A stretch of 44,504 nucleotides of DNA, taken from the IMG/VR virus record IMGVR_UViG_2537561991_000021. One strand, given 5' to 3'. Shown here piece by piece: positions 6,114 through 44,504 of this stretch (position 1 is the stretch's first letter; each line of letters begins with the position of its first letter). The stretch comes from a virus (Duplodnaviria > Heunggongvirae > Uroviricota > Caudoviricetes). The notes beneath the pieces are model-generated. The model saw only the letters and a list, made by a program, of their open reading frames with translations. It searched no databases and had not been told where the DNA came from. The position numbers were made by a program, and so were the translations under genes.

Positions 6114-6126
6114 CATTTGATAAACT

Positions 6127-6157
6127 CCTGAAAACAAAAAACCCGCCAAGTGGCGGG
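6127..6157 (-). terminator. rho-independent terminator closing the tail-module cassette
   Basis: Minus-strand hairpin CCCGCC-ACTT-GGCGGG followed by TTTTTTGTTTT. Confidence 0.75.
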
Positions 6158-6178
6158 TCTACAGGAACAACTCTAAGT

Positions 6179-6349
6179 TTATTTTTTCTGTTTAAAATTG
6201 TCCAACTCAGGTTCTTTAACGCTTTCTGTCATGTAATCCAATCCACCAAAAGGTACTTCAAGCATTATACTGCTTTCATAATCAGCCATGGATTGCTCTG
6301 CTTGCGTTGGCTTGCTTTGCTGTGAGTTGTCATTATTTGATGTTGTCAT
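6179..6349 (-). CDS. small hypothetical protein (56 aa), third gene of the cassette
   Basis: ATG-initiated ORF MTTSNNDNSQQSKPTQAEQSMADYESSIMLEVPFGGLDYMTESVKEPELDNFKQKK, below the ORF-track size cutoff; lies between the membrane-protein gene and the terminator. Confidence 0.4.
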   Translation of the reverse strand: MTTSNNDNSQQSKPTQAEQSMADYESSIMLEVPFGGLDYMTESVKEPELDNFKQKK

Positions 6350-6352
6350 CAA

Positions 6353-6907
6353 CTATGCCTTATTTATCAAAAGAAAAGTAACCGATAATATGAAAAAACC
6401 GAAAGATAACGCAATTCCTTCAAAAAGATAACGAGCGTAAACTGCCTTTTCTTTATGAAGACTTTCGATCAATTCAACAGCTTTACCATACTGAAACATA
6501 TGGTATCTAAGCGTTTTAATTTTATCACCGTAAAATAAAAAATCATGCTCTTCTTTTCGCTTATGAATAGGCATTTTTGGTATATCTTTCAGTCCCCAAG
6601 TACGCCATAGGAAAAAAAAGCACATAACAATACAAACAAAGCACAGATATGCACAAAGTATAGATAATGTTAAAAACCAATTACTCTTTAGCCCACTTTT
6701 GAAATCAACAGTCCCAAATACAGCCAGTAGAGCAGAGGTTTCTACAGCTAAAATAGCAAGAAGGTAGTTAACTTTGTCCTCAAGACGACGATATGTTGAT
6801 TTTGCTTCCTCATATCTATCTTTATAATATGACGAAATAAAATCAGCGCCTATAGTCTCAATTGCCTTTTGTTCTTCTGTTGTATCTATTGACGAACGCT
6901 TGCTCAT
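6353..6907 (-). CDS. hypothetical membrane protein, AT-rich accessory gene
   Basis: 184 aa with a charged N-terminal region and hydrophobic helices (LLAILAVETSALLAVFGTV, WFLTLSILCAYLCFVCIVMCFFFLW, GIALSFGFFILSVTFLLI). Much lower GC than flanking tail genes. Confidence 0.7.
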   Translation of the reverse strand: MSKRSSIDTTEEQKAIETIGADFISSYYKDRYEEAKSTYRRLEDKVNYLLAILAVETSALLAVFGTVDFKSGLKSNWFLTLSILCAYLCFVCIVMCFFFLWRTWGLKDIPKMPIHKRKEEHDFLFYGDKIKTLRYHMFQYGKAVELIESLHKEKAVYARYLFEGIALSFGFFILSVTFLLINKA

Positions 6908-7264: not shown

Positions 7265-8329
7265 CTATAATCCTCTCTGAAAAGCAGTGCTGGATGGCAT
7301 ATCCTGCGCACCGCGCGCTTCGCACATCATATCCATGTACCACGCCTGGCCCCTTGTATCGCCAGTGTACATAATCCCGCGCACAATATAAACGCCATCC
7401 GTTGCGATGCTGGCAGGCTGCGATGTGGTGCCGCTTAGCGTAATATTTCCGTCCGTGTTCTGGTCGGTGATCTGCCCACCAGCCATAGCGATATCGTTGT
7501 TCGACAACGCGGTGCGATATACGGAAGCCTGATCCAGTTGAATGAGCCCATTAACCCGGATGTTCGGATTAATAAGCGCGCGAACGTTTACGCCGTTGCC
7601 GATGGTCTGCTGCGGCATGCCAATAAGCCCGGTAGCGCTGTTGAGCACAATCGCTTCGTGAACATATTCATTATTCGCCACCATCTGGCGCTGACCGTCT
7701 ACGAATTGCCATGTTGCGCCACATTGCCCGGCTACGTTATCCATTAGATGCCGCGTCATGCCAAAGAGCACCCGCCCCCGGGGGAATACAGTAGCAGGCA
7801 TTTCAGGCGTCAGGCCTTCGGTCGCACCTTTGGCTTCGAAGTCTTTCATCAGCGCACGGTTCACATCAGCGACCGTGTAACCGGCAGCCAGCGTCTGTGA
7901 GGTTATACTGGTGGCAAAAGCCAGATCAGTATCTGCTGCCTGAATCAGGACGTAGGAATCAACCGGACTGTCTTTTCCTGTAACCGAGTAGCGAATTTCA
8001 CCGCTGAAAATCAGTCCGTAGTTGCGGCCATCACTCTGGCCCACGTCCGCCGCATCAACCTCCCGCACGATCCCGACGTCGCTTGCCGACACCTCCGGCG
8101 CGATACCGTCGTAACCCGCAATCAGACGCACTTTCGAAAACTCCCGCCCGGTGATTCGGTTCACAGTATCTGCCGAGAGGTTATAAATTTTGATAGTCCC
8201 TACCCGGGACGCGCTGCTGATGTTGAACCAGTCGATCGTAAAGGTCACTTTAAAATCACTTAGCTCAATTCCCTGACCGTTCCCGTCCACAAGCTGCAGC
8301 TCGAAATGTCTCATCCAGTTCTGTGACAT
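7265..8329 (-). CDS. baseplate hub-like / tail protein
   Basis: 354 aa in the tail cluster between the tape measure and the spike; assigned by position only. Confidence 0.55.
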   Translation of the reverse strand: MSQNWMRHFELQLVDGNGQGIELSDFKVTFTIDWFNISSASRVGTIKIYNLSADTVNRITGREFSKVRLIAGYDGIAPEVSASDVGIVREVDAADVGQSDGRNYGLIFSGEIRYSVTGKDSPVDSYVLIQAADTDLAFATSITSQTLAAGYTVADVNRALMKDFEAKGATEGLTPEMPATVFPRGRVLFGMTRHLMDNVAGQCGATWQFVDGQRQMVANNEYVHEAIVLNSATGLIGMPQQTIGNGVNVRALINPNIRVNGLIQLDQASVYRTALSNNDIAMAGGQITDQNTDGNITLSGTTSQPASIATDGVYIVRGIMYTGDTRGQAWYMDMMCEARGAQDMPSSTAFQRGL

Positions 8330-17152: not shown

Positions 17153-18373
17153 TTACCCTTTACGGTTTGCCCAGAATTCAGCGTTTTGTTTGTTCAGGGA
17201 AGCGATACTGGTCATGCCCATGTTTAGGCGCTGTGCATCGCCGGTGGTGGCGCGGGTGTTTCGCCCTTTGGCAATCTCAGACACGGCATTAAACGCCATG
17301 TCGACCGATTGTTTCGGCAATTTGCGGATATCCGCATCACCGACTATCTGGCGAACCAGCGTTTTGTCAGCGGAAGCCAGAACCTCGCGTTTGAACGCGG
17401 TCGGTTTCATCTTACGGCTCAGATCGATACCCGGAACAATAACTTCGGCACGCCAGGCTGAGTCACCAGTAATCGTGGTTTCCTCTTCATCGTCCTCGCC
17501 GTCACCGGTCGGATTATCGTCAGGCTTATTATCGTTATCGCCCGTGGCATTTCCTTCCAGCTTAGCCAGCAGGGCTTTCAGTAATGTTTTGAGGTCATCA
17601 TCACTGTCGCCGGTTGGGCCTCCCCCCATCTCTGGTGCTTTGTCCGGTAGTGGTTGCTGCGGGGACAGGTTGATATTGAGATTAACGCCCTGCGGCAAAT
17701 CCCCCTCATCTCCTGTAACCGATGCGGGAGCCGACTCCACCAGTTCGTTCATGGTGTCGGCATCTCCTGTCTTGATGGCCGCACGCATGCGGTTCCACCA
17801 GTTTTTCTTTTGATTTGCCATTGTGTCTCTGTCTCCAATTGCACAACGATTTCCGGCTCTGCCTTTAGGGACAAGAGCCACATGGTTTCCGGTAATATCG
17901 ACCTGCTCAGCTTTACCTGGCTCGGTCTGCTCGTACTCCGCGTCATAGCCGCACGACACTTCGCGCAGGCCATCTTCGATAAGCTGAATGGCGTTTTCGT
18001 CTTTGACGATAAGGTCAGCCAGCATCAAATCAGACTGCTCACCCGTCCCGCGCCGGACATTCTGGAGGTGCCCGACAGCAAGCTCTTTCCAGTTCTCGGG
18101 ATTTACCAGCCGCACATTCCCGTTTTCATCTTCAGGATGCAGAATCGTGATGCTCATCCCTTCGAATGAGGCAAGCGTGGCCGGATGGAATACCTGCTCA
18201 GGAGAACGCGTGACGACTATTTCACCGAACTTATCGGGTTTCAGTTTTGGCAGGTCATCAGCACCATAGAGCTGCTTACCTGTTCGTCCTATCGGCACGT
18301 CTCTGCACAGCAACGAGCCGTCAGCCAGCTGATAGCGGGTTTCCCCCAGCCGGGTATTGAAAAAATATTTCAT
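17153..18373 (-). CDS. head scaffolding (or protease-scaffold) protein
   Basis: 406 aa with a long acidic low-complexity segment (GDNDNKPDDNPTGDGEDDEEETT), between the head-morphogenesis and capsid genes. Confidence 0.6.
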   Translation of the reverse strand: MKYFFNTRLGETRYQLADGSLLCRDVPIGRTGKQLYGADDLPKLKPDKFGEIVVTRSPEQVFHPATLASFEGMSITILHPEDENGNVRLVNPENWKELAVGHLQNVRRGTGEQSDLMLADLIVKDENAIQLIEDGLREVSCGYDAEYEQTEPGKAEQVDITGNHVALVPKGRAGNRCAIGDRDTMANQKKNWWNRMRAAIKTGDADTMNELVESAPASVTGDEGDLPQGVNLNINLSPQQPLPDKAPEMGGGPTGDSDDDLKTLLKALLAKLEGNATGDNDNKPDDNPTGDGEDDEEETTITGDSAWRAEVIVPGIDLSRKMKPTAFKREVLASADKTLVRQIVGDADIRKLPKQSVDMAFNAVSEIAKGRNTRATTGDAQRLNMGMTSIASLNKQNAEFWANRKG

Positions 18374-31742: not shown

Positions 31743-32102
31743 ATGAAACTGAAGCTGAACAATGTTCGTCTGGCCTTCCCGTCTCTGTTTGAAGCTAAAA
31801 CTGTAAACGGCGAAGGCGATCCGCGTTTCTCCGCAGTATTTTTAATGTCTCCCAAACACCCACAACTGGAAGAAATCCGTAAAGCTATGAAGCAGGTAGC
31901 GAAGGAAAAATGGGGAGAGAAGTGGGAGCCCATTTATAACCAGCTGGAGAAAAAACTCAATCTGTGCCTGCATGATGGTGATGAAAAAGCAGAGTATGAA
32001 GGCTTCCCCGGTAATTTCTTCCTGAATGCTGCTAACAAAGCGCGCCCAGCTGTTCTTGATCGCGATCGTTCGCCACTTATTCAGGCTGACGGACGTCCCT
32101 AT
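31743..32102 (+). pseudogene. putative ssDNA-binding protein, 5' part (split by IS insertion)
   Basis: Reading frame runs into the IS end at 32103 (GTAAGCG); continues in frame at 35642. Confidence 0.6.
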
Positions 32103-32174
32103 GGTAAGCGTACAGCCTGAACCGTCTGGTCAGAATCTGACGAATTAGACAAAGTGGTGTCCACCAAATAAGTA

Positions 32175-32576
32175 GTGGGAACCAAAGTATCAGATATGCA
32201 GAAAAATGTGACTCCCGGCAGGCGAAAAGGCTGCCCTAATTATCCTCCCGAATTTAAACAGCAGCTCGTTGCTGCCTCCTGTGAACCCGGGATATCCATC
32301 TCAAAACTTGCTCTTGAAAATGGCATTAACGCCAATCTGTTGTTCAAATGGCGACAACAATGGCGCGAGGGAAAGCTGCTATTACCTTCTTCAGAGAGCC
32401 CCCAGCTACTTCCTGTGACTCTCGATGCAGCTGCCGAACAGCCAGAATCGCTCGCAGAGGACCCGGAAACCCTCAGTATCAGCTGTGAGGTAACGTTCCG
32501 GCACGGGACGCTCCGCTTCAATGGCAATGTCAGCGAAAAGCTCCTGACTCTGCTGATACAGGAACTGAAGCGATGA
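32175..32576 (+). CDS. IS66-family orfA (short form)
   Basis: 133 aa; GINANLLFKWRQQWREGKLL region shared with the longer orfA-like proteins. Confidence 0.75.
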   Translation: MGTKVSDMQKNVTPGRRKGCPNYPPEFKQQLVAASCEPGISISKLALENGINANLLFKWRQQWREGKLLLPSSESPQLLPVTLDAAAEQPESLAEDPETLSISCEVTFRHGTLRFNGNVSEKLLTLLIQELKR

Positions 32577-32920
32577 TCCCGTTACCTTCCGGGACCAAAA
32601 TTTGGCTGGTTGCCGGTATCACCGATATGAGAAATGGCTTCAACGGCCTGGCTGCGAAAGTACAAACGGCGCTGAAAGACGATCCCATGTCCGGCCATGT
32701 TTTCATTTTCCGGGGCCGCAGCGGCAGTCAGGTTAAACTGCTGTGGTCCACCGGTGACGGACTGTGCCTCCTGACCAAACGGCTGGAGCGTGGGCGCTTC
32801 GCCTGGCCGTCAGCCCGTGATGGCAAAGTGTTCCTTACGCAGGCGCAGCTGGCGATGCTGCTGGAAGGTATCGACTGGCGACAGCCTAAGCGGCTGCTGA
32901 CCTCCCTGACCATGCTGTAA
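32573..32920 (+). CDS. IS66 Orf2-like accessory protein (TnpB)
   Basis: 115 aa, clearly related to the orfB at 33672..34019. Confidence 0.8.
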   Translation: MIPLPSGTKIWLVAGITDMRNGFNGLAAKVQTALKDDPMSGHVFIFRGRSGSQVKLLWSTGDGLCLLTKRLERGRFAWPSARDGKVFLTQAQLAMLLEGIDWRQPKRLLTSLTML

Positions 32921-32994
32921 ATCTCTTTATCCTGGTTGTCAGTAACCGGCTCATTTAAACCGTCTGGTCTGTTTCCTCCGGCTCTACAAAAATA

Positions 32995-33672
32995 ATGTCC
33001 ATCATTTTTAATGGACACTATCGTATGAAACACCGGACCTGGATCACTGAAGCTTTACGTCTTCACTTTGAAGAACATTTACCCCGGGTTGTGGCCGGGC
33101 GTCGCCTGGGTGTACCAAAATCAACAGTTTGTAGTATGTTCGTGCGCTTTCGGAGAGCTGGCCTTTCGTGGCCTTTGCCCGCAGGCATGTCGGAGCAGGA
33201 ACTTGATGCCTGCCTTTACGGACAATTTTCCACGGTACCAGTCGTACGTCCTGAAAGCACCGTTATATCCGAAGCCCCCGTGGTAAAAAAACGTCCCCGG
33301 CGGCCCAACTTCCCTTATGAGTTTAAAATCGCCTTAGTGGAGCAGTCACTGCAGCCCGGAGCCTGTGTGGCGCAGATCGCCCGGGAAAACGGAATCAACG
33401 ATAACCTGCTCTTCAACTGGCGCCATCAATACCGGAAAGGTGGCCTGCTGCCTTCCGGAAAAAATATGCCGGCACTGCTTCCCGTGACGTTAACGCCGGA
33501 GCCGGATAATAAAATCCCGGCCCCCGCACAGGAACCAGAGCAGATAAATACACCGTCCGACAGTCTGTGTTGTGAGCTGGTTCTGCCGGCCGGAACTCTC
33601 AGGCTTAAAGGTAAACTGACGCCGGCGTTATTACAGACACTTATCCGCGAAATAAAAGGGAGCAGCCACTGA
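32995..33672 (+). CDS. IS66-family orfA-like protein with N-terminal HTH
   Basis: 225 aa, about 97% identical to 1387..2064. Confidence 0.8.
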   Translation: MSIIFNGHYRMKHRTWITEALRLHFEEHLPRVVAGRRLGVPKSTVCSMFVRFRRAGLSWPLPAGMSEQELDACLYGQFSTVPVVRPESTVISEAPVVKKRPRRPNFPYEFKIALVEQSLQPGACVAQIARENGINDNLLFNWRHQYRKGGLLPSGKNMPALLPVTLTPEPDNKIPAPAQEPEQINTPSDSLCCELVLPAGTLRLKGKLTPALLQTLIREIKGSSH

Positions 33673-34019
33673 TGATATCTCTCCCTGCAGGTTCGCGTAT
33701 CTGGCTGGTTGCAGGTATCACCGATATGCGAAATGGCTTTAACGGCCTGGCATCAAAAGTTCAGAACGTCCTGAAGGATGACCCGTTCTCCGGACACCTG
33801 TTCATCTTCCGCGGACGCCGGGGTGACCAGATAAAAGTGTTGTGGGCTGACAGTGACGGACTGTGCCTCTTCACCAAACGCCTGGAGCGGGGCCGCTTCG
33901 TCTGGCCAGTCACCCGTGACGGCAAGGTGCACCTTACTCCGGCTCAGTTATCCATGCTTCTTGAAGGTATCAACTGGAAGCACCCGAAACGAACGGAACG
34001 CGCTGGAATCCGCATATAA
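33672..34019 (+). CDS. IS66 Orf2-like accessory protein (TnpB)
   Basis: 115 aa, identical to 1040..1387. Confidence 0.85.
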   Translation: MISLPAGSRIWLVAGITDMRNGFNGLASKVQNVLKDDPFSGHLFIFRGRRGDQIKVLWADSDGLCLFTKRLERGRFVWPVTRDGKVHLTPAQLSMLLEGINWKHPKRTERAGIRI

Positions 34020-34038
34020 CCCGTTGTAAAGTGAGGAT

Positions 34039-35610
34039 ATGGACACCTCACTTGCTCATGAGAACGCCCGCCTGCGGGCACTGTTGCAGACGCAACAGGA
34101 CACCATCCGCCAGATGGCTGAATACAACCGCCTGCTCTCACAGCGGGTGGCGGCTTATGCTTCCGAAATCAACCGGCTGAAGGCGCTGGTTGCGAAACTG
34201 CAACGTATGCAGTTCGGTAAAAGCTCAGAAAAACTTCGTGCAAAAACCGAACGGCAGATACAGGAAGCACAGGAGCGAATCAGCGCACTTCAGGAAGAAA
34301 TGGCGGAAACGCTGGGTGAGCAATATGACCCGGTACTGCCATCCGCCCTGCGCCAGTCTTCAGCCCGTAAACCGTTACCGGCCTCACTTCCCCGTGAAAC
34401 CCGGGTTATCCGGCCGGAAGAGGAATGCTGTCCTGCCTGTGGTGGTGAACTCAGTTCTCTGGGATGTGATGTGTCAGAGCAACTGGAGCTTATCAGCAGC
34501 GCCTTTAAGGTTATCGAAACACAACGTCCGAAACAGGCCTGTTGCCGGTGCGACCATATCGTGCAGGCACCAGTACCTTCAAAACCCATTGCACGCAGTT
34601 ATGCCGGAGCGGGGCTTCTGGCCCATGTTGTCACCGGGAAATATGCAGACCATCTGCCGTTATACCGCCAGTCAGAAATATACCGTCGTCAGGGAGTGGA
34701 GCTGAGCCGTGCCACACTGGGGCGCTGGACAGGTGCTGTTGCTGAACTGCTGGAGCCGCTGTATGACGTCCTGCGCCAGTATGTGCTGATGCCCGGTAAA
34801 GTCCATGCTGATGATATCCCCGTCCCGGTCCAGGAGCCGGGCAGCGGTAAAACCCGGACAGCCCGGCTGTGGGTCTACGTCCGTGATGACCGTAACGCCG
34901 GTTCACAGATGCCCCCGGCGGTCTGGTTCGCGTACAGTCCGGACCGGAAAGGTATCCATCCACAAAATCACCTGGCCGGTTACAGCGGTGTGCTTCAGGC
35001 CGATGCTTACGGTGGTTACCGGGCGTTATACGAATCCGGCAGAATAACGGAAGTCGCGTGTATGGCTCATGCCCGGAGAAAAATCCACGATGTGCATGCA
35101 AGAGCGCCCACCTACATCACCACGGAAGCCCTGCAGCGTATCGGTGAACTGTATGCCATCGAGGCAGAGGTCCGGGGCTGTTCAGCAGAACAGCGTCTGG
35201 CGGCAAGAAAAGCCAGAGCCGCGCCACTGATGCAGTCACTGTATGACTGGATACAGCAACAGATGAAAACACTGTCGCGTCACTCAGATACGGCAAAAGC
35301 GTTCGCATACCTGCTGAAACAGTGGGATGCACTGAACGTGTACTGCAGTAATGGCTGGGTGGAAATCGACAACAACATCGCAGAGAACGCCTTACGGGGA
35401 GTGGCCGTAGGCCGGAAAAACTGGATGTTCGCGGGTTCCGACAGCGGTGGTGAACATGCGGCGGTGTTGTACTCGCTGATCGGCACATGCCGTCTGAACA
35501 ATGTGGAGCCAGAAAAGTGGCTGCGTTACGTCATTGAACATATCCAGGACTGGCCGGCAAACCGGGTACGCGATCTGTTGCCCTGGAAAGTTGATCTGAG
35601 CTCTCAGTAA
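34039..35610 (+). CDS. IS66-family transposase TnpC
   Basis: 523 aa with leucine-zipper-like N-terminus and CPACGG...CxxC zinc motif; right inverted repeat 30 bp downstream. Confidence 0.85.
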
Positions 35611-35641
35611 ATATCAATACGGTTCTGACGAGTCGCTTACT

Positions 35642-35836
35642 CCCTATGCAGGGTGCTATGTAAACGCCGTTATCGATATCTGGGCACAGGACAATAATTT
35701 CGGTAAACGCATTAATGCCTCACTCGGCGGAGTCCAGTTCCTGCGAGACGGCGATGCATTCGCTGGCGGCGGAGTGGCAAGCGCTGACGATTTCGACGAT
35801 ATCAGCGAAGGTGCTGATGCTGAAGCACTAATTTAA
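35642..35836 (+). pseudogene. putative ssDNA-binding protein, 3' part
   Basis: In-frame continuation after the IS, ending in an acidic tail (ADDFDDISEGADAEALI) typical of SSB C-termini. Confidence 0.6.
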
Positions 35837-35888
35837 CCCTACTTCATAGACGCCCGGTTAAACACCGGGCTACTGATTAGGCGTATAA

Positions 35889-36518
35889 TCACTCAGGAAT
35901 CTTAATCTTTCTCAATTCTTTATTTAGTTCACAGTTCTTTTTCTTAGACGGGAAAGTATCATACATCCAAAAACCAACAGTCTCTAAAACTATTATCATA
36001 ACCATATACACAAGATAATTTAAAAGGCCTTCATTTTGCCCTATGGAAATAATGCAGATAATAGAAAAAAGGGTAAACAGCACAAAACACAGAAAGGAAA
36101 ACAGACGACTAATAATAAATAAAAAACCTGAAAAATCAACATTAATAAAAAACACTCCGTTATCTTTCTCTATATAATTCTGAAGCTTAATCAACTGATT
36201 TATATACTGTCTTTTTTCTAATCTATTGCAAATGTAAATAACATCTCTTCGGTTATAAGATGATTGCAATTTCAGCGCATCACGAATAATTTTATCATTT
36301 ATTCTTTTTTCTATGGCACTCTTATCCTCCTCATCCAGATAACGTTCATACTTAACTAAATATAAAATTAACTTCTTAACATATTTAGGCTCTTTATACT
36401 TATAATTAAAAATGATCTTTCTTATCCAGACTCCCATAACAATCAAACATGAAAAAATATATCCAGCTATTTTCTCCAGATGCTCTGTATGGTCAATCAA
36501 GTATTGGATCATATGCAT
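35889..36518 (-). CDS. AT-rich hypothetical membrane protein, antisense to the early operon
   Basis: 209 aa, Lys/Ile/Tyr/Asn-rich, with hydrophobic helices (IFSCLIVMGVWI, FLFIISRLFSFLCFVLFTLFSIICIISI, YLVYMVMIIVLETVGFWMY); GC far below flanking phage genes. Confidence 0.65.
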   Translation of the reverse strand: MHMIQYLIDHTEHLEKIAGYIFSCLIVMGVWIRKIIFNYKYKEPKYVKKLILYLVKYERYLDEEDKSAIEKRINDKIIRDALKLQSSYNRRDVIYICNRLEKRQYINQLIKLQNYIEKDNGVFFINVDFSGFLFIISRLFSFLCFVLFTLFSIICIISIGQNEGLLNYLVYMVMIIVLETVGFWMYDTFPSKKKNCELNKELRKIKIPE

Positions 36519-36564
36519 AATTAATCTTTTAATCAGTTAATAGAATAAAAACCAAGGTAAACAC

Positions 36565-38628
36565 ATGTCCAATATACTATGGGGCGACCTGGAAACCTAT
36601 TGCGAAATCCCTATTACGAACGGTACCCATGCGTATGCCGAAGGCGTTGAAGTGATGCTTTTCGCATGGGCTATCAACGACGGGCCAGTAAACGTGTGGG
36701 ATATCACTGCCGGTGGTGGTATTCCACACGGCTTATACGAAGCAATCGCAGACCCTGAAACCCTGCTTTATTTCCATAACTCTCACTTCGACCGCACCGT
36801 TCTGCGTTATGCAATGCCGCGCCTGGCACCGCCAGTCGAACGTTGGCGCGACACAATGGTGCAGGCGCTGGCGCACGGTCTCCCGGGGTCTCTGGGGGAA
36901 CTCTGCGAAGTACTAGGCGTCCCGCAAGACAAAGCGAAGGACAAAGAAGGTAAAGCGCTGATCCAGCTGTTCTGTAAGCCACGCCCGAAAAACAGCAAAC
37001 TGCGCCGGGCCACCAGCAAAACCCACCCGGAAGAATGGCGGCGCTTTGTTGCTTACGCCGGACTGGATATCGAGGCAATGCGCGAAGTCTATAAACGTCT
37101 GCCGAAGTGGAATTATCAGGGGACAGAACTGGCGCTCTGGCATCGTGATCAGCAGATCAATGACCGGGGCGTCTGCATGGACGTGGAACTCGCACGCGCT
37201 GCGATCGACGCGGTAGACCAGGAACAAAAGCGCCTGGCAAAGCGTACACAGGAAATGACTGATGGCGAAGTGCAGGCAGCCACACAACGAGACGCGTTGA
37301 TTAAGCACATTGTTGAATCCTACGGTGTGGAGCTACCAGACATGCAACGCAGTACTCTGGAACGTCGTATTGCCGACCCCGATTTACCATCTGCCGTGAA
37401 AGAACTGCTGGCTATCCGCCTGCAGGCCAGTACTACCAGCACCAGTAAATACAAGGCACTGATGAAAGGCGTAAGCCACGACGGGCGCTTACGCGGTACG
37501 CTACAGTTCTGCGGGGCGTCACGTACCGGTCGTTGGGCCGGACGGCTATTCCAGCCCCAGAACCTTCCCCGCCCTTCACTAAAACAGGAACAAATAGACG
37601 AAGGCATCGAAGCACTGAAAGCCGGATGTGCAGACCTGCTGTTTGACAATATCATGGAACTAACCAGTTCAGCGTTACGTGGCTGCATTATCGCGCCAAC
37701 AGGCAAAAAGCTGGTGGTAAGTGACTTGTCGAACATTGAAGGCCGTATGCTGGCATGGCTGGCGGGAGAAGAATGGAAACTGAATGCATTCAGAGAGTAC
37801 GACGCCGGAACGGGTCCGGACTTATATAAACTGGCGTATGCAAAAGCTTTCGATATTGCACCAGATGATGTTGATAAACACATGCGTCAGATCGGTAAAG
37901 TCATGGAACTCGGTCTGGGTTATGGTGGTGGTGTGTCGGCCTTCATCACTTTTGCACTGGTTTACGGTCTCGATCTCGACGAGCTGGCGAACGCCGCACT
38001 ACCAAACATTCCCCGCGATGTTATCCGCGAGGCGAAAAGCTGGTACGACGAATCGGTTAAACGCAAGTCAACCTACGGGCTTTCTGAACGGGTATTTATC
38101 GCCTGCGACTCACTTAAACGTCTCTGGCGCCGGGCGCATCCCGCGACCTGTGATTTCTGGTACGAACTGGAGCGCACCGTCCGCACTGCAATCGCCACAC
38201 CGCAAAAAACATTGTATTGCGGTTATCTTAAAATCCGCCGCGATGGCGCGTGGCTGCGCATACAGCTACCATCCGGACGCGCTGTATGCTACCCGTCTCC
38301 GGTTATCGAAAAAGGGAATATCACCTACATGGGGGTTAACTCTTATTCGCGTAAATGGCAACGACTCAAAACCTACGGCGGAAAGCTGGTGGAGAACATC
38401 ACCCAGGCGGCCGCCCGCGACATTCTGGCCGGAAACATGCCGCTTATCGAAGATGCCGGTTACAGCATTGTGCTGACGGTACACGACGAGGTGATCACCG
38501 AAGCACCTGACACAGAAGATTTCAACGATAAAGCGCTTTCCGCGCTTCTCTCCACTGACCCCGAATGGGCGCCCGATATCCCACTGAACGCTGGCGGTTT
38601 TGAGGCGTACCACTACAAAAAAGATTGA
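36565..38628 (+). CDS. family A DNA polymerase with 3'-5' exonuclease domain
   Basis: Exonuclease motifs [23 protein letters not shown]; polymerase motif A DLSNIEGR, motif [17 protein letters not shown], motif C VHDEV. Confidence 0.9.
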
Positions 38629-38692
38629 TATAACTCACCTTATCGAGCTATGGCGACATGCTGAATTCGAGTAAATTAAAGGAACAATACTT

Positions 38693-39454
38693 ATGCAGGA
38701 ACTAACTGAAATGCCGATCACCTATCCATACCCGAGAGAAACTTTTCCTGACTTTTTGAGGGAGTGTGGGTTCACCAATTTTTCCCACGAACAGCGTGAG
38801 ACTTGTGACTGCTATCGTTTAACGAATGGCGTAATTGTTAACCTTTACACCACCCGGACCATTCAGTTTCAAGGTAACCCTCAAGAACGTCCCAATGTTG
38901 AAACTGCAATAATGACCCATTTAGGAACGCCGCCCACGGCAACACCACTAGCCGTAGAACAGCCATCTGAGCTCCCCAAAAAGATATTCATTGTTCACGG
39001 CCATGACCATACTGCAAAGGAGCAACTTGAGCTAATCCTTCATAAACTTGGATTACCAGACCATTTCATTTTGCAGAATACGGGAGGGACTGGACTCACC
39101 ATTATTGAAGAGCTTGAACGTGAAATTGGGCAAGGACAAACTGCTACCCGTTTCGGGATTGTTCTTTTGACACCTGATGATATGGGATACTCAAAGCGCG
39201 CCGGTGAAGCAGAAATCCAACCCCGCGCAAGACAGAACGTTGTACTCGAGATGGGTATGCTTCTTTCGTCCTTAGGGCGCAGCAATGTAGCAATCCTTCA
39301 GAAACAGCACCTAGAACAGCCTTCTGATGCTAACGGGATTTTGTATCTGAATTTCAACGACCATGTACGTGAAACAGTTCCTCGTCTAGTGCAACGGTTA
39401 CAAAATTCTGGTTTCGAATTTACACAAGCTCAAATAGCTAACGCTTCCTCGTAA
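38693..39454 (+). CDS. TIR-like domain protein (predicted nucleotide-binding TIR-like fold) with a unique N-terminal domain
   Basis: 253 aa; C-terminal region KIFIVHGHDH...GIVLLTPDDMG...ARQNVVLEMGMLLSSLGRSNVAILQ...PSDANGILYL matches the recalled consensus of the TIR-like nucleotide-binding family. Lower GC than neighbours; own RBS and terminator. Confidence 0.6.
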   Translation: MQELTEMPITYPYPRETFPDFLRECGFTNFSHEQRETCDCYRLTNGVIVNLYTTRTIQFQGNPQERPNVETAIMTHLGTPPTATPLAVEQPSELPKKIFIVHGHDHTAKEQLELILHKLGLPDHFILQNTGGTGLTIIEELEREIGQGQTATRFGIVLLTPDDMGYSKRAGEAEIQPRARQNVVLEMGMLLSSLGRSNVAILQKQHLEQPSDANGILYLNFNDHVRETVPRLVQRLQNSGFEFTQAQIANASS

Positions 39455-39477
39455 TTACCCCTTATTGTTGATTACAA

Positions 39478-39502
39478 CCCTGCATCGCGGGGTTTTTTAT
39501 TT
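39478..39502 (+). terminator. rho-independent terminator after the TIR-like gene
   Basis: CCCTGC-ATC-GCGGGG stem (one G-U pair) followed by TTTTTTATTT. Confidence 0.7.
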
Positions 39503-39517
39503 GGGAATAAAAACCCT

Positions 39518-39652
39518 ATGTCATTTAAATACCGGGACAGTCCGCTTTATTACCGGACTGTGCGGGAGGCTTTGCACCTTGAACAGTCCGGCGGGTACGA
39601 CCGGGCGATGCAGGTCTGGGCCAAAGCGAACGTCGGTTTGATTTTTGTCTGA
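39518..39652 (+). CDS. small hypothetical protein (44 aa)
   Basis: ATG ORF MSFKYRDSPLYYRTVREALHLEQSGGYDRAMQVWAKANVGLIFV between the terminator and the zinc-finger gene; below the ORF-track cutoff. Confidence 0.3.
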   Translation: MSFKYRDSPLYYRTVREALHLEQSGGYDRAMQVWAKANVGLIFV

Positions 39653-39688
39653 TGCAGAACATGCGCGAAAAGCGTAAGGAGGTGGACG

Positions 39689-39883
39689 ATGTCTAATATC
39701 GATAATAAGGGTTGGGGGTTCCCCGCTCTGTCAAAAAAAGCACATTTCTTTAATTCGGGGGAAGCCATATCACTATGCGGAAAATGGATGTTCATAGGTA
39801 TCAGGATTGATGAATGGCATGACCATCCTGAGAACTGCGCTATCTGCATGAAGAAACGCAAAAAGCAGGAAGGCGAAAGCTAA
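39689..39883 (+). CDS. small zinc-finger-like protein
   Basis: 64 aa with a strong AAGGAGG RBS; Cys/His cluster (C...HDHPENCAIC); stop overlaps the VRR-NUC start (TAATG). Confidence 0.55.
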   Translation: MSNIDNKGWGFPALSKKAHFFNSGEAISLCGKWMFIGIRIDEWHDHPENCAICMKKRKKQEGES

Positions 39884-40170
39884 TGGCCTATGAACGTGAA
39901 AACCTAATCGAAAAGCACCTCGTCGCTGAAGTAAAAAAGGCTGGCGGGGTTGCCTTTAAGTTCGTATCCCCCGGTCGCCGCTCGGTACCAGATCGCATTG
40001 TTCTGCTACCCGGCGGTCGTATCATTTTCGTTGAATGTAAATCCCCCGGCAAGCCACCACGGCCTGACCAGTTGCGCGAACACGGACGGTTGCGCGCGCT
40101 GGGCTTTACCGTAGTGGTGCTGGATAGCAAAAATCTGGAGGCCATTATTTTAAGCCGCAATAAAGGATAA
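39883..40170 (+). CDS. VRR-NUC domain nuclease
   Basis: 95 aa; PD-(D/E)XK-type residues in DRIVLLPGGRIIFVECKSPGK, as in VRR-NUC proteins. Confidence 0.7.
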   Translation: MAYERENLIEKHLVAEVKKAGGVAFKFVSPGRRSVPDRIVLLPGGRIIFVECKSPGKPPRPDQLREHGRLRALGFTVVVLDSKNLEAIILSRNKG

Positions 40171-40182
40171 AAGACTTATGCT

Positions 40183-40980
40183 TTAATCCGTATTTTTAAC
40201 ACGTATTTCGAAACACCCTTTTAATTTAGCTATTTCCTTTTTAGAGGACATGATTGTGAATCTCATCCCTTTTAAATCATTAACAAATTCAAATTTTGCG
40301 CTATTTGACTCACAATCACCAACAACAAAACCACTACCAAATGAATTGAGCAACACTTTAGTATTACTACCATCTACCATATAATATTCGTTATTTTTAA
40401 ATGCAGTAACCTTCCCGAATGTATAGCTCAATATCAACAACGTTATCACCCCTAAAGGAAAAGCTGACTTTAGGATTTTTAAATCGATATAATAAAATAC
40501 GTTCTTATACTCTGCAAGCCTCCCAAATTTTCTAATGCTCTCCATATGATGTTCGTGTCTCTTACTATGGATTGGCATGGACACCACATTGTGATAATTC
40601 AACAAAAGCATAGCAAATAATAAAATATCCTGAACACTCATCACAGAAGTTTCGGAGAAATAACCAAAAGGCCAATGAAATCCTATTATACAAATATTAG
40701 CCATTAGCATAACAACTATAAATACAATAAATGGAACATAATATTTCCCTTTCAAATCAAACATCAACGCCGCATATAAGGCGCCGAGAAATAAAAAACT
40801 AAAAAACAAAAGCCACACAGCCGAATACAATAGCGTATTTAAGTCTATTTTAATAAAAAGGTCTGGATAGCCATAATACGATGCAACACCTTTCTGAAAA
40901 GAATATGCCATCGCATAAGCTAACGCTGAAAACATAGTTAATAAAGAAACTTGCTTTGTAAATATTTTCGCCAGGGGCAT
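40183..40980 (-). CDS. AT-rich polytopic membrane protein with C-terminal soluble domain, antisense to the early operon
   Basis: 265 aa; strong GGAGG RBS; five or more hydrophobic helices in the N-terminal 150 aa and a soluble C-terminal domain of about 110 aa; very low GC. Confidence 0.65.
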   Translation of the reverse strand: MPLAKIFTKQVSLLTMFSALAYAMAYSFQKGVASYYGYPDLFIKIDLNTLLYSAVWLLFFSFLFLGALYAALMFDLKGKYYVPFIVFIVVMLMANICIIGFHWPFGYFSETSVMSVQDILLFAMLLLNYHNVVSMPIHSKRHEHHMESIRKFGRLAEYKNVFYYIDLKILKSAFPLGVITLLILSYTFGKVTAFKNNEYYMVDGSNTKVLLNSFGSGFVVGDCESNSAKFEFVNDLKGMRFTIMSSKKEIAKLKGCFEIRVKNTD

Positions 40981-41043
40981 ACCCGCCTCCGTTAGTTATA
41001 TATATAGAGAGAGAAGTGACCATATTCTACCATAGGTGTATTA

Positions 41044-42438
41044 ATGAATAGCATATTCCACCCCAGAGTTTATCAAAACCTCATAATCAATCACCAAACT
41101 AACATTCTGCGCGGCAACATCTGGGCGGGTATGGGAATGGGTAAAACCGTGGCAACGCTCACTGCGCTGGAAGATCTCTTTATGGCAGGGGCAGAAACAT
41201 GCCCCGCACTGGTCCTCGCGCCGCTGCGCGTGGCTGCCAGCACATGGCCGGATGAAGCACTGAAGTGGGGACATTTGCGCAATATCGAGGTGCAGCCAAT
41301 TATTGGTAATGCCAAAGCGCGCTCTATGGCGCTGACGAACAGCAACGCAAGCGTGTTCACCATCAACTACGATAACCTTGTCTGGCTGATTGAAGAATTG
41401 GGAGAACGATGGCCGTTCGGTACTGTCATTCCAGATGAAAGCACCCGGCTAAAATCCTTCCGGCTGCGCGGTGGTGGTAAGCGCGCGGCGGCGCTGGGCA
41501 AAGTGGCGCATAAGTATGTCCGGCGCTGGATAAATCTCACCGGTACGCCAGCACCGAACGGCCTGGTAGATTTGTGGGGACAATCGTGGTTTGTGGACCA
41601 GGGGCAACGTCTCGGGCGCACTTACGGCGCGTTTACCTCACGCTGGTTCAACTCGATACAGTTTCCGGGGCAGAGCTGGACCAAACTGGAGCCTTTTGCT
41701 CACTCACAGGGTGAAATACAGCGAGCGTTAGCCGATGTAACCCTCTCGCTGGATGCGGCCGACTGGTTCGATATCAAAGACCCCATCCATAACGTAATCC
41801 GCGTGGATATGCCACCGAAGGCCCGTCAGCAGTATCGTGAAATGGAAAAGGAAATGTTCCTCGAGCTGAATGGCGAAGGCATCGAAGCACCGAACGCCGC
41901 GGCAAAGACACTGAAGTGTCTGCAAATCGCCAGCGGCGCAGTATACACAGATGACACCGGAAGTTGGTCAGAACTGCATGACACCAAACTACAGGCGCTG
42001 GACAGCATACTGACCGAAGCAGCTGGCGCACCTGTGCTGGTTGCTTATCACTGGAAACACGATCTTGAACGCTTGCTTAAAGCATTCCCTCGCGGTCGTC
42101 ACCTCGACCAGGATCCACAGACACTGCGCGACTGGAATTCCGGAAAGATTCCTGTTCTCTTTGCACACCCAGCCAGCGCGGGCCACGGCCTGAACATGCA
42201 GGACGGCGGAAATATACTGGTATTTTTCTCACACTGGTGGGACCTGGAGCAATATCAGCAAATTATTGAACGTATCGGCCCCACCAGGCAGATACAGGCC
42301 GGACACAATCGTCCGGTATTTATTCACCACATTATTGCTGCCGACACTATGGATGAAATGGTGATGGAGCGGCGCAACTCAAAACGAACAGTGCAGGACA
42401 TCCTGCTCGATGCCATGAAAAAGAGAGGTATAGCATGA
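41044..42438 (+). CDS. SNF2/DEAD-like superfamily II helicase
   Basis: Walker A GMGMGKT, DExx box VIPDESTRLK, C-terminal helicase motifs (GHGLNMQ, QIIERIGPTRQ). Confidence 0.8.
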   Translation: MNSIFHPRVYQNLIINHQTNILRGNIWAGMGMGKTVATLTALEDLFMAGAETCPALVLAPLRVAASTWPDEALKWGHLRNIEVQPIIGNAKARSMALTNSNASVFTINYDNLVWLIEELGERWPFGTVIPDESTRLKSFRLRGGGKRAAALGKVAHKYVRRWINLTGTPAPNGLVDLWGQSWFVDQGQRLGRTYGAFTSRWFNSIQFPGQSWTKLEPFAHSQGEIQRALADVTLSLDAADWFDIKDPIHNVIRVDMPPKARQQYREMEKEMFLELNGEGIEAPNAAAKTLKCLQIASGAVYTDDTGSWSELHDTKLQALDSILTEAAGAPVLVAYHWKHDLERLLKAFPRGRHLDQDPQTLRDWNSGKIPVLFAHPASAGHGLNMQDGGNILVFFSHWWDLEQYQQIIERIGPTRQIQAGHNRPVFIHHIIAADTMDEMVMERRNSKRTVQDILLDAMKKRGIA

Positions 42439-42635
42439 GCGAGAAACCCGACGATTTACTCACCCCGGATGAAGTATGCCAAAAGTTAGGTATTACACAG
42501 AAAACGCTATGTGAGTGGAATATTAAGCATCGTCATCGGGCTATCCTGGCACCAATTCGTTTCAGTGCAAAAGTAGTTCGTTATGAGCGCCGAAATATCG
42601 ACGCTTTTATTCAAAAATGTCGCAGCCAGTATTAA
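42435..42635 (+). CDS. xis: excisionase / AlpA-like DNA-binding protein
   Basis: 66 aa; LLTPDEVCQKLGITQKTL HTH with downstream basic region; last gene of the early operon, converging on the integrase. Confidence 0.6.
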   Translation: MSEKPDDLLTPDEVCQKLGITQKTLCEWNIKHRHRAILAPIRFSAKVVRYERRNIDAFIQKCRSQY

Positions 42636-44035
42636 CCTCGCCGCCGTAGCAATGCCACCTGCGCAAGTATGCTCCGCTCGTGAGCCTCGAAAGCTTCGCG
42701 CTTCAACGCAATCTCTTCCTGTAAAATCTCATCAGAAAAGTCGTAATGTTCTGCCATCGGGTCATCTGACTTGCTGGAGTGGTGAAGGCAAAGGAGGCTG
42801 ATTTCCCTTCGGTCTGAGCGGGAATAGCCTCTTTCCTTCATCAAGGCAATAACATTGCTCTTAAGGAATTTACGGCACATCGTATTAAATGCACCGTCTT
42901 TCCCTTTAACAGTCCCATCATGTTTTATTCCTTTTACAGCCCCGTCCGGGCTGTATGTTTTCACCAGCTTATCCAGTGATCGTTTTGAAAATGGCTGCAT
43001 TGGATCACGTGGCTGCAAAAATACATAATCCCTGTTGCACTCAGGAACTGAATCACGCCAGGCTTTCTGCTCGTCGATAATCCGCCGGATCTCAGGGGTT
43101 ATCGGCAGGCGGAAAGCCTTTTGTGTTTTCATAGCCCCTCGCATGCCGATAACCCCTTCCGGATAAACAATTTCACCAGCCTCCTCGTGAACGTAGTCCC
43201 AGCGCAGGTTATGGACATTAATCGGACGAACACCAGTGATGATCATGAAGCGAACAGCATTCTTCTGGTGTACAGAGGTGCAGGCAGCAACATTGAGCCA
43301 GAGTCGGGCGATTGATTCAATATCGGTAAAAAGCCGTGTGGGGGTAGGTTTCTGTACGCGGGAGGAAACATAATCATCTGGCAGACTGGCGGCAACATTG
43401 CGGCCGTTGCAAAGAGTAGGTGCGCAGAACTTCCAGAACCGACGGAGCTCGGCAAACAACTCCAGGGCGTTATTGTTCGAGCGAGTAGCGATCCACTCGT
43501 CCAGCACTTCCACCAGCCGATTGTATGTTACGTCGCTGAACACCTCGCGCTCGCCGAACGTTGCTTTAATCCGGTCGATACGCACCCCGTAGGTTGTGAA
43601 ACTGTCCGGGCTCAGCTTCTGCCGGGCGACTTTGGCTTTGAGGTCATCCCGGTACATTTCCAGCGCTGCATGTACGGACTCTGCCCGCAGGCCACCGTCA
43701 GCCATACCTAGCGCTTTTTCGCGCGCCAGCTGGATAGCGAGCTCCGGCCACTCGCCGAGCTTTTTACCTTTGAGGCCCATCTTTTTTGGAAACTCGGCGT
43801 AAAATGTAACCTTACCGGCTTTGCTGAAATCGATACGGAGATAGTTCTCTTTTTCGTATTTGGAACGGCGAGCCACGCCGGAAGCAGCGAGGATGATTTT
43901 GGCGGCAGCAACACAGATTTTCATGTGTGCGCTAGTATAGGGGGGTTTACAGGCGTCCCATTTTTCAGAAGCGGCTAAAACATCGTCATTATTGGGGCTA
44001 TCCGGATTATGTGTTACAGTGCGCGGCATTCTCAA
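42632..44035 (-). CDS. int: tyrosine-type site-specific integrase
   Basis: C-terminal catalytic region (GVRPINVHNLRWDY, LLCLHHS, EHYDFS) with a candidate arm-binding N-terminal domain. The ORF-track start is TTG; the true start is probably an internal ATG. Confidence 0.75.
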   Translation of the reverse strand: MRMPRTVTHNPDSPNNDDVLAASEKWDACKPPYTSAHMKICVAAAKIILAASGVARRSKYEKENYLRIDFSKAGKVTFYAEFPKKMGLKGKKLGEWPELAIQLAREKALGMADGGLRAESVHAALEMYRDDLKAKVARQKLSPDSFTTYGVRIDRIKATFGEREVFSDVTYNRLVEVLDEWIATRSNNNALELFAELRRFWKFCAPTLCNGRNVAASLPDDYVSSRVQKPTPTRLFTDIESIARLWLNVAACTSVHQKNAVRFMIITGVRPINVHNLRWDYVHEEAGEIVYPEGVIGMRGAMKTQKAFRLPITPEIRRIIDEQKAWRDSVPECNRDYVFLQPRDPMQPFSKRSLDKLVKTYSPDGAVKGIKHDGTVKGKDGAFNTMCRKFLKSNVIALMKERGYSRSDRREISLLCLHHSSKSDDPMAEHYDFSDEILQEEIALKREAFEAHERSILAQVALLRRRG

Positions 44036-44234
44036 TCCTTATCTGCGTAGGCGCAGAAAACAAGCTCACACATACAAGTCTTTTCTACGGGACAAAATGC
44101 AATGTGTTGCGGTTTAGTGTTGCTGGACTGAGTTTATCAAGGTTAAATACACTGGATCAACATACAGTAAGTTAATGACAGTAAAGCATACAAACTCGAT
44201 ACAACTTACTGATTTTAAAATGATTTAACGGTAA

Positions 44235-44504
<270 letters not shown>

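Follow-up and report, generated by a model that had tools for sequence, protein, structure and literature searches.

A chimeric ISEc8–ISCro1 insertion within a putative single-stranded DNA-binding protein gene of a prophage

How an insertion whose two ends belong to different insertion sequences came to lie in a prophage gene, bordered by one perfect target-site duplication, is the question raised by virus record IMGVR_UViG_2537561991_000021 (Duplodnaviria; Heunggongvirae; Uroviricota; Caudoviricetes). The whole stretch of DNA analysed here, which we refer to as the window (44,504 nt), is a 2010-era draft contig that starts inside another copy of the insertion sequence (IS) ISCro1, with obvious contig-end errors there. 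The prophage also carries a second, older ISCro1 in its tail-fibre assembly gene.

The insert occupies positions 32104–35640 (3,537 bp), starts with GTAAGCG and ends with CGCTTAC. By inspection, both tips adjoin the 8-bp sequence TCCCTATG (32096–32103 on the left, 35641–35648 on the right), which occurs exactly twice in the whole window with both strands counted; identity of the 8 nt at both tips would arise by chance with a probability of 4^-8, or about 1.5e-5. The empty site holds a single copy of TCCCTATG, and alignments of the two sides to locus L003 overlap by exactly 8 nt. The original prediction, made from the sequence alone, had described a repeat-flanked insert with GTAAGCG-type ends and an intact, perfect 8-bp duplication; all of this is borne out, with the left coordinate corrected by one and the length to 3,537 from 3,538 bp.

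The interrupted gene lies on the + strand, with codons 1–120 and 1 nt of the next at 31743–32103 and codons 121–182 and the stop at 35649–35836. With the insert and one of the two repeat copies taken out, these segments join into a 549-nt open reading frame (ORF) of 182 amino acids (aa). Its product matches the Pfam family PF10991 (Enc34_ssDNA-bd) from end to end at E = 7.6e-44 and 149.9 bits (cut-off, 26), covering profile positions 1–172 of 176; among solved structures, it matches chains 4jg2, 5odj, 4klk and 5odk with E values of 1e-16 to 6e-13. The last 29 residues, DGDAFAGGGVASADDFDDISEGADAEALI, contain 9 D/E and form an acidic C-terminal tail, and the gene's neighbours encode a DUF2800 nuclease, PolA, VRR-NUC and a helicase. 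In its end-to-end PF10991 match, acidic tail and gene context, it resembles Enc34 ORF6/DUF2815, an SSB (protein that binds single-stranded DNA) of the T7 gp2.5 type (PDB 5ODJ, 5ODK and 5ODL; PMC5686142). An acidic, unstructured C-terminal tail is a described feature of this family, in which preferential binding of single-stranded DNA has been demonstrated for Enc34 ORF6 only (PMC5686142). We assign the interrupted gene to the DUF2815/Enc34-type (T7 gp2.5-like) phage SSBs as a putative ssDNA binder; it differs from Enc34 ORF6 in being split after codon 120 and in that ssDNA binding by its product is predicted from sequence. An SSB-like target with an acidic C-terminus and a restorable frame of about 183 aa had been proposed, and the PF10991 match and an uninterrupted homologue agree with that proposal apart from the length of 182 aa.

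The homologue answers an earlier suggestion to look for the intact gene in related prophages. A reconstructed 2,000-nt empty site is present uninterrupted and at 100% identity in Escherichia coli FDAARGOS_1059 (NZ_CP066032.1), where the two flanks are contiguous and the 549-nt gene is annotated as a DUF2815 family protein; among the matches listed, the site is also uninterrupted at an identity of at least 99.3% in 29 of 29 other genomes. Outside the insert, the prophage is 99.98–99.99% identical to one that lacks it, with about 3 nt differences in 30 kb. This near-identity, together with the 100% and 99.96% identity of the two IS parts to other copies, supports the earlier view of the insertion as fairly recent.

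ISEc8 is the element annotated as L0013–L0015 in E. coli O157:H7. The left part of the insert (32104–32941, + strand) corresponds to nt 1–838 of ISEc8, being 100% identical over 838 nt to ISEc8 copies in loci L001 and L002; it comprises the left inverted repeat (IRL; GTAAGCGTACAGCCTGAACCGTCTGG...), tnpA and tnpB, and ends in the tnpB–tnpC spacer. On the + strand, tnpA (32196–32576) encodes 126 aa from the RefSeq ATG, or 133 aa from a GTG at 32175, with an HTH_Tnp_1 domain (PF01527, E = 1.8e-12), and tnpB (32573–32920) a 115-aa accessory protein of the IS66 Orf2 type (PF05717, E = 1.2e-38); the products are identical to those of the L002 copy (WP_001171554.1 and WP_000612591.1, respectively). 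The full ISEc8, as reconstructed, measures 2,442 nt, has 8-bp target-site duplications (TSDs) CGTTCAGT and AGATAGAC, and encodes a partner transposase with the RefSeq product name 'ISEc8 family'. Nucleotides 839–2442 of the 2,442 are missing from the insert, and neither the ISEc8 tnpC nor its right inverted repeat (IRR) is found anywhere in the window. Because only nt 1–838 are present, without tnpC and IRR, we treat this portion as a fragment rather than a member copy; unlike ISEc8 itself, it can supply neither transposase nor right end.

ISCro1, first named in Citrobacter rodentium ICC168, belongs to the IS66 family, in the IS679/'ISEc8-like' group. A complete element of this type, 2,699 nt long, forms the right part of the insert (32942–35640, + strand), from its IRL (GTAACCGGCTCATTTAAACCGTCTGG...) to an IRR ending in ...GACGAGTCGCTTAC, as judged from its length and its identity to other copies. 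Its tnpA (32995–33672; 225 aa; PF01527, E = 8.6e-15) and tnpB (33672–34019; 115 aa; PF05717, E = 4.7e-40), the start of which overlaps the tnpA stop (ATGA), encode proteins identical to those of the L002 copy (WP_001339397.1 and WP_000624622.1), and tnpC (34039–35610) encodes an intact 523-aa DDE transposase (PF03050, E = 3.7e-103) with leucine-zipper, zinc-finger and C-terminal IS66 domains (PF13007, PF13005 and PF13817), all three genes being on the + strand. The element is 99.96% identical over 2,699 nt to the copies in L001 and L002 (1 mismatch) and 100% identical to those in L010–L014 and L016, the majority of them flanked by perfect 8-bp TSDs. TnpC carries a single substitution, A339V, relative to the L002 copy; public assemblies contain the exact V339 protein in 68 blocks, at numerous loci, three of them in one genome, and a protein one residue different bears the RefSeq product name 'ISCro1 family transposase'. 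The length, an 8-bp TSD (PMC12115866) and three ORFs of 225, 115 and 523 aa, as in the 'ISEc8-like IS' of pEntH10407 (PMC2762410), agree with published descriptions. The earlier outline of a transposase-less orfA/orfB pair followed from 32942 by a complete tnpC element is therefore matched by ISEc8 1–838 and a 2,699-bp ISCro1.

This ISCro1 is unlike other copies in that its own IRL is internal and the 8-bp duplication lies 838 nt further out, at the ISEc8 IRL. The 8 nt to its left (GGTTGTCA) are not repeated to its right, and therefore ISCro1 alone did not create the present flanks. Because a lone ISCro1 also produces 8-bp duplications, it might nevertheless have arrived first, with the TCCCTATG duplication, and the ISEc8 left fragment later, brought in either by a second insertion into exactly the same 8 bp and a subsequent deletion next to the IS, or by recombination with a copy nested elsewhere. 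We consider this order extremely improbable. ISEc8 would have to strike an identical 8-bp target beside the ISCro1 IRL, whereas the perfect 8-bp TSDs of nine independent ISCro1 insertions are unrelated in sequence and show no consensus; homologous recombination with a nested copy, for its part, would swap the left flank, but on both sides of the insert the sequence is colinear with that of the uninterrupted prophage.

The insert as a whole has the traits of the IS66 family: a DDE_Tnp_IS66 transposase (PF03050) in the 523-aa ORF, an 8-bp TSD (TCCCTATG at both tips), imperfect terminal inverted repeats of about 20–30 bp beginning 5′-GTAA, and the order tnpA–tnpB–tnpC with a tnpA/tnpB overlap in the ISCro1 part, the ISEc8 part contributing tnpA and tnpB only. 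The outer ends, GTAAGCGTAC... and, as reverse complement, GTAAGCGACT..., pair the ISEc8 IRL with the ISCro1 IRR at 18 of 26 positions, the terminal GTAAGCG being perfect; the internal ISCro1 IRL (GTAACCGG..., terminal GTAACCG) matches its own IRR at 18/26 as well. The two IRLs have AACCGTCTGGTC in common at nt 17–28 and the two IRRs CCGTATTGA; the coding regions of the two elements are only about 68–78% identical. To our knowledge, cross-recognition of ISEc8 and ISCro1 ends has no experimental demonstration. We rejected a composite transposon as a description, one complete IS directly abutting a transposase-less fragment with no intervening cargo; the 'IS66-family composite insertion' of the original prediction is thus an IS66-family insertion, for which 'composite' is a loose term given the single transposase gene.

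The two elements are found nested elsewhere. ISCro1 lies within ISEc8 at nt 217 in L001 and at nt 1112 in L002 and about 29 genomes; among E. coli chromosomes and plasmids, pAUSMDU00014361_01 has it at nt 217 and NZ_CP074909.1 at nt 1112, in the same relative orientation as here. These cases keep the distal ISEc8 and an inner 8-bp TSD, with the outer duplication at the two ISEc8 tips, whereas the chimera lacks the distal ISEc8 and has its outer duplication at the tips of two different elements; nested insertions of this sort are likely the type of precursor. The chimera itself is rare. The left, internal and right junctions are each absent from all 5,426 complete E. coli genomes, the internal junction from the 72,556 plasmids of PLSDB, and a 30-mer across the internal junction from the GTDB representatives and JGI metagenomes; on these searches the 3.5 kb is not a recurrent element, which speaks against its being a single described one. 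The 5,426 genomes and PLSDB contained neither a second copy of the chimera nor a donor in which ISCro1 sits at nt 838 of ISEc8, nor the several copies at different loci, with different duplications, that mark a propagating chimera.

We propose that the chimera probably transposed as one 3,537-bp unit into codon 121 of the prophage SSB gene. First, as the anatomy shows, an ISCro1 inserted after nt 838 and before nt 839 of an ISEc8, and the join inside the insert coincides with the tip of the ISCro1 IRL. A transposase of the IS66 family, either ISCro1 TnpC in cis or ISEc8 TnpC in trans, may then have acted in this donor by bringing the ISCro1 IRR together with the outlying ISEc8 IRL rather than with the IRL of ISCro1 itself. 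The resulting unit now lies in the SSB gene, bordered by the fresh 8-bp duplication TCCCTATG. Both parental elements generate 8-bp TSDs, and the genes for transposition are undamaged, with no difference from other copies in ISCro1 tnpA and tnpB. Transposition with surrogate or neighbouring ends is known from ISEcp1, which uses alternative right ends, and from composite transposons that use the outer ends of two IS copies; there, too, an element's own end is paired with a more distant one and the intervening DNA is moved with a duplication of normal length. The chimera differs from such cases in that its surrogate end is a bona fide inverted repeat of a related family member rather than a degenerate look-alike, and its 'cargo' only the tnpA–tnpB pair of another element.

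The same sequence could have been built in situ, by insertion of ISEc8 into the SSB gene with the TCCCTATG duplication, insertion of ISCro1 at its nt 838 and a 1,612-bp deletion between the 7-bp CGCTTAC tips of the ISCro1 and ISEc8 IRRs. When we constructed this intermediate, the deletion reproduced the observed 3,937-nt region base for base; moreover, the route makes end cross-recognition unnecessary, nesting of ISCro1 in ISEc8 is common, and assemblies of the lineage from short reads end within ISEc8, suggesting that ISEc8 is multicopy in the genome. It requires, however, that three events follow one another at a single locus of a prophage otherwise almost identical to an uninterrupted one, and ISEc8 occupies this SSB site in none of the complete genomes. 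The tip-to-tip pair is 1 of about 1,132 direct-repeat pairs of at least 7 nt in the intermediate; a clean tip-to-TSD result is therefore unexpected from a slippage deletion, whereas it is expected from transposition. Deletions at 7-nt microhomologies 1.6 kb apart are also much rarer than transposition. We thus regard assembly in place as possible but unlikely. Movement as a single unit, which the original prediction favoured, takes two events rather than three and is the most parsimonious reading, though it is not proven: the in-situ deletion gives the same sequence, and we infer mobility as a unit from one insertion because no second copy or donor was found.

A further reading concerns the contig itself. 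The internal and right junctions are seen in a single draft contig, ADUO01000178.1, and lack independent confirmation beyond it; independent assemblies confirm the left junction only, breaking inside ISEc8, with two other assemblies of the lineage stopping 29 and 231 nt into it. Given also the age of the draft and its end errors in another ISCro1 copy, the outer junctions might be real and the interior collapsed or mis-threaded through IS repeats, the true insert being larger (for example, ISEc8, other DNA and then ISCro1). Such a partial artefact is very unlikely in our estimation. The right tips of ISCro1 and ISEc8 share only 7 nt, too short for an assembler mis-join, and a false join would leave no perfect 8-bp TSD matching the empty site. 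The contig's ISCro1 belongs throughout to a single natural allele type, which recurs at 100% identity in other genomes. The resident tail-fibre copy, for which FDAARGOS_1059 provides the full reading, differs from it at 28 positions scattered along the element. Even were the interior larger, the left end of the insert would be that of ISEc8 and the right end that of ISCro1.

Whichever route produced it, the insertion has certainly destroyed the SSB gene, detaching the last 62 residues, including the acidic tail. The reading frame of the 5′ fragment continues past the IS boundary as far as 32120 and acquires 5 IS-encoded codons; the resulting 125-aa fusion ORF is called in identical form in 7 public contigs. 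The 3′ fragment, which holds the conserved AGCY strand region and the acidic tail, is now without its own start codon or promoter, and no ORF of at least 40 aa is called in 35649–35836. The prophage would no longer be able to supply its own SSB for replication, which the original prediction had considered probably impaired, and is very probably defective. For annotation, the 125-aa 'Enc34_ssDNA-bd' ORF and the orphan 3′ fragment are to be read as halves of one inactivated gene.

The elements are known and the kind of event is ordinary, the curiosity being that the two ends of the insert come from different elements; the finding's reach is limited; it opens no new question and involves no new gene family. 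That the chimera represents a newly born, autonomous IS66-family element is, in our view, decidedly doubtful. If it does, it would still be able to move, because it carries an intact ISCro1 tnpA–tnpB–tnpC set, and it would provide natural evidence of an IS66 transposase pairing the ends of two members so divergent in their coding regions, showing by what means novel combinations of ends and additional tnpA/tnpB pairs originate among IS66 elements. For IS biology, the insert is a single natural example suggesting joint use of ends from two different IS66-family elements. Such joint use, cheap to test because both elements rank with the commonest of the IS66 family in pathogenic E. coli, may be one possible route to chimeric insertion sequences.

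The window, positions 3–44506 of draft contig ADUO01000178.1 (assembly GCA_000188775.2), contains a prophage of about 40 kb that adjoins yfhL and has a tailed-phage structural module together with a BPP-1-like replication module (DUF2800 PD-(D/E)XK nuclease, SSB (a protein that binds single-stranded DNA), PolA, VRR-NUC, SNF2 helicase and VapE). The SSB gene is interrupted by an insert with the tips GTAAGCG at its start and CGCTTAC at its end. The original prediction was right that an insert is present here and set its left coordinate one base low; the corrected insert occupies 32104–35640 (3537 bp) and is flanked by TCCCTATG, of which the 44.5-kb window holds two copies only, at 32096–32103 and 35641–35648. 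Joining 31743–32103 to 35649–35836 restores an open reading frame (ORF) of 549 nt, whose 182-amino acid product matches the whole profile of Pfam PF10991 (Enc34_ssDNA-bd, formerly DUF2815) at 149.9 bits (E = 7.6e-44).

When the empty site was rebuilt over 2000 nt and searched for in complete E. coli genomes, FDAARGOS_1059 (NZ_CP066032.1) had it unbroken at 100% identity, and the annotation there calls the 549-nt gene a DUF2815 family protein; in the other 29 genomes among the matches listed, the empty site was at least 99.3% identical. The window aligned to the FDAARGOS_1059 prophage over 11103–32103 (99.99%) and 35641–44504 (99.98%), and because these alignments overlap by exactly 8 nt, the length of the duplication, the two flanks adjoin each other and the duplication is genuine. 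The predicted splitting of an SSB gene with an 8-bp target-site duplication is confirmed by this overlap and by the uninterrupted gene, and a chance repeat as the source of the flanking TCCCTATG copies is rejected, the empty site being known.

BLAST of the window against two annotated loci resolved the insert into ISEc8 nt 1–838 (32104–32941, 100% identity) and a complete 2699-nt element of the ISCro1 type (32942–35640, 99.96%, one mismatch), in agreement with the earlier description of an orfA/orfB pair lacking a transposase followed, from 32942, by a complete element. The ISEc8 fragment comprises the left inverted repeat (IRL), tnpA (PF01527) and tnpB (PF05717) and ends in the spacer 5′ of tnpC, and the ISCro1 part encodes tnpA, tnpB and a 523-amino acid transposase in which the four IS66 TnpC domains are all present. 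The parental elements were reconstructed from loci where each has its own duplications, giving an ISEc8 of 2442 nt (duplications CGTTCAGT and AGATAGAC) and an ISCro1 of 2699 nt (duplications GACTGGTA and CTTGAAAA); the ISCro1 length and its 8-bp duplication agree with a published description (PMC12115866). ORFs of 133 and 115 amino acids have the sizes of ISEc8 L0013 and L0014, and those of 225, 115 and 523 amino acids the sizes in the ‘ISEc8-like IS’ of pEntH10407 (PMC2762410). Four of the five IS proteins of the insert are identical to copies elsewhere, while TnpC differs by A339V; this natural allele is widespread, and one genome has it at three loci. The interior of this draft contig crosses two multicopy ISs and might have been mis-assembled between hybrid ends that are still real, which we consider very unlikely given that an assembly artefact cannot make a perfect target-site duplication matching the empty site.

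The internal junction falls exactly at the tip of the ISCro1 IRL, which shows an earlier transposition of ISCro1 into nt 838 of an ISEc8. To the left of ISCro1 stand 8 nt (GGTTGTCA) that have no repeat on its right, and the ISCro1 right inverted repeat (IRR) adjoins a TCCCTATG copy whose partner lies at the ISEc8 IRL. From this arrangement of sequences, the most economical explanation, and a probable one, is that the chimera transposed as a unit. The donor would have been ISEc8::ISCro1(838), with a right side reading GAGTCGCTTAC followed by GGTTGTCA and then ISEc8 from nt 839; there, transposase would have brought together the outer ISEc8 IRL and the ISCro1 IRR as a pair of ends, and the 3537-bp segment would then have moved into the SSB gene, leaving a normal 8-bp duplication. 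The ISEc8 IRL and ISCro1 IRR match at 18 of 26 positions with a perfect GTAAGCG tip, and the ISCro1 IRL likewise matches its own IRR at 18/26. Both left ends have AACCGTCTGGTC in common at nt 17–28 and both right ends CCGTATTGA; the chimera is thus bounded by a ‘left-type’ end on one side and a ‘right-type’ end on the other, and the two appear compatible as an end pair. Nine independent ISCro1 insertions showed perfect 8-bp duplications of unrelated sequence, and TCCCTATG as a target fits non-specific target choice.

The main rival to transposition as a unit, a serious one that we regard as unlikely, is an origin in situ, whereby ISEc8 inserted first, ISCro1 nested within it and a 1612-bp deletion then took place between the two 7-bp CGCTTAC tips. 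The intermediate before deletion would contain the ISEc8 IRR followed by TCCCTATG and CAGGGTGC, and the modelled deletion gives the observed sequence exactly; however, this route places three events at one locus in a lineage whose prophage is, apart from the insert, nearly the same as an unbroken one, and among the direct-repeat pairs of at least 7 nt in the intermediate, about 1132 in all, the tip-to-tip pair is just one, whereas a clean tip-to-duplication product is the default of transposition. Scenarios in which ISCro1 came first seem barely plausible.

A second ISCro1 copy, truncated where the contig begins, occupies 1–2117 (− strand) within the tail-fibre assembly gene and is 98.8% identical to the copy in the hybrid; in the available 2117 nt the pair differ by 23 substitutions plus 3 indels. 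Homologous recombination with another ISCro1, including this inverted copy, is rejected by the colinearity of the flanks with the uninterrupted prophage, and those sequence differences also disfavour the 1–2117 copy as a partner. FDAARGOS_1059 shares the tail-fibre insertion, with the duplication TATAAAGC, so this ISCro1 is older than the SSB insertion. Window 1–100 (ISCro1 nt 2022–2117 of the cut copy) has three additional bases (CCACCAAAAATACACC versus CCACAAAATCACC), and the base at nt 2113 matches the allele of the chimera, not that of the FDAARGOS_1059 copy; both have the appearance of errors in sequencing or assembly at the end of the draft contig. Two genes on the − strand, a DUF2213 gene (17153–18373, 406 amino acids) and a baseplate-region gene (7265–8329, 354 amino acids), are intact ORFs in the window and annotated as frameshifted pseudogenes in the FDAARGOS_1059 prophage, which is 99.99% identical in other respects, probably owing to indel errors of that assembly.

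The left (SSB to ISEc8 IRL), internal (ISEc8 nt 838 to ISCro1 IRL) and right (ISCro1 IRR to SSB) junctions were each absent from 5,426 complete E. coli genomes; PLSDB (72,556 plasmids) likewise lacked the internal junction, searched over 300 nt, and neither GTDB species representatives nor JGI metagenomes contained its exact 30-mer. All two-piece ‘full’ matches to the internal junction were ISCro1 nested at other ISEc8 positions, and a single described 3.5-kb element is rejected, as the unit recurs nowhere in the databases searched. As a 125-amino acid SSB::IS fusion ORF, the left junction was found in 7 public contigs, including one of GCA_977880285.1 and one of the Logan assembly of SRR040461, which end 231 and 29 nt into ISEc8, respectively. 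Independent confirmation is thus of the left junction only: on the right, a 209-amino acid neighbour protein was seen only in the source contig, PolA gave 425 blocks in which every copy among the matches listed adjoins an intact 182-amino acid SSB gene, and the TnpC V339 allele, being widespread, gave no independent confirmation. On these results the insertion is private to one lineage.

ISCro1 interrupts ISEc8 at nt 1112 in about 29 genomes (for example, 4114–6812 of reference locus L002) and at nt 217 in several plasmids and chromosomes (3218–5916 of reference locus L001), and at the comparison locus L017 (2192–7602) ISCro1 was itself struck at nt 842 by a 95% variant; the nested IS66-family cases at these three loci each show a clean 8-bp duplication. 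The contig of GCA_977880285.1, a short-read assembly from the same lineage, ends at the equivalent of window 32334 (ISEc8 nt 231), near the nt-217 nesting site of other strains, and one may speculate that a further ISEc8 in this genome is broken by an insertion close to nt 217.

The restored SSB is 66% identical to Bbp40 of Bordetella phage BPP-1 (RefSeq: Gp2.5-like SSB) and matches the solved chains 4jg2, 5odj, 4klk and 5odk, among them the Enc34 ORF6 SSB, which binds single-stranded DNA and has a T7-gp2.5-like OB fold and an acidic tail for partner interactions (PMC5686142). It is also 100% identical to a protein encoded in three prophage-derived E. coli entries, deposited under names of the form ‘Escherichia phage vB_EcoM-...’. 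These are rejected as proof of a viable intact prophage through ON470588.1 (‘Escherichia phage vB_EcoM-611R5’, ‘complete phage genome’), which has the host genes yfhH, yfhB and tadA at its end and so consists of an excised stretch of prophage instead of a packaged genome; its tail-fibre assembly gene is unbroken. Next to the SSB gene, between it and PolA and on the opposite strand, lies the AT-rich ORF for the 209-amino acid protein (35889–36518, −), which has no family match, and directly 3′ of PolA is a TIR-domain gene (PF10137 CAP12-PCTIR_TIR; 38693–39454, +); either of them may be a defence or moron gene carried by the prophage.

Insertion occurred after codon 120, immediately ahead of the conserved ‘AGCY’ strand, and separated 62 residues, the tail among them, from the rest. 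The SSB gene is thereby divided: its 5′ part stops after five IS-derived codons (…GRPYGKRTA, then stop), and its 3′ part has no start. Lacking the strands beyond residue 120 and the acidic tail, the truncated SSB would be non-functional. In T7, gp2.5 is essential; by analogy, the insertion probably blocks DNA replication of the induced prophage and is possibly polar on the downstream replication genes. Because of the ISCro1 already present in its tail-fibre assembly gene, the prophage may have lost the capacity to form infective particles even before the SSB insertion.

ISEc8 and ISCro1 are known, abundant IS66-family elements, and both the inactivation of prophage genes by ISs and the nesting of IS66 elements are commonplace. 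As far as the databases show, the chimera does not appear to be a propagating element, and that it represents a newly born autonomous IS demonstrating cross-recognition of ends is distinctly unlikely. What is new here is this particular chimera, with its implication that heterologous IS66 ends may have acted together in it.
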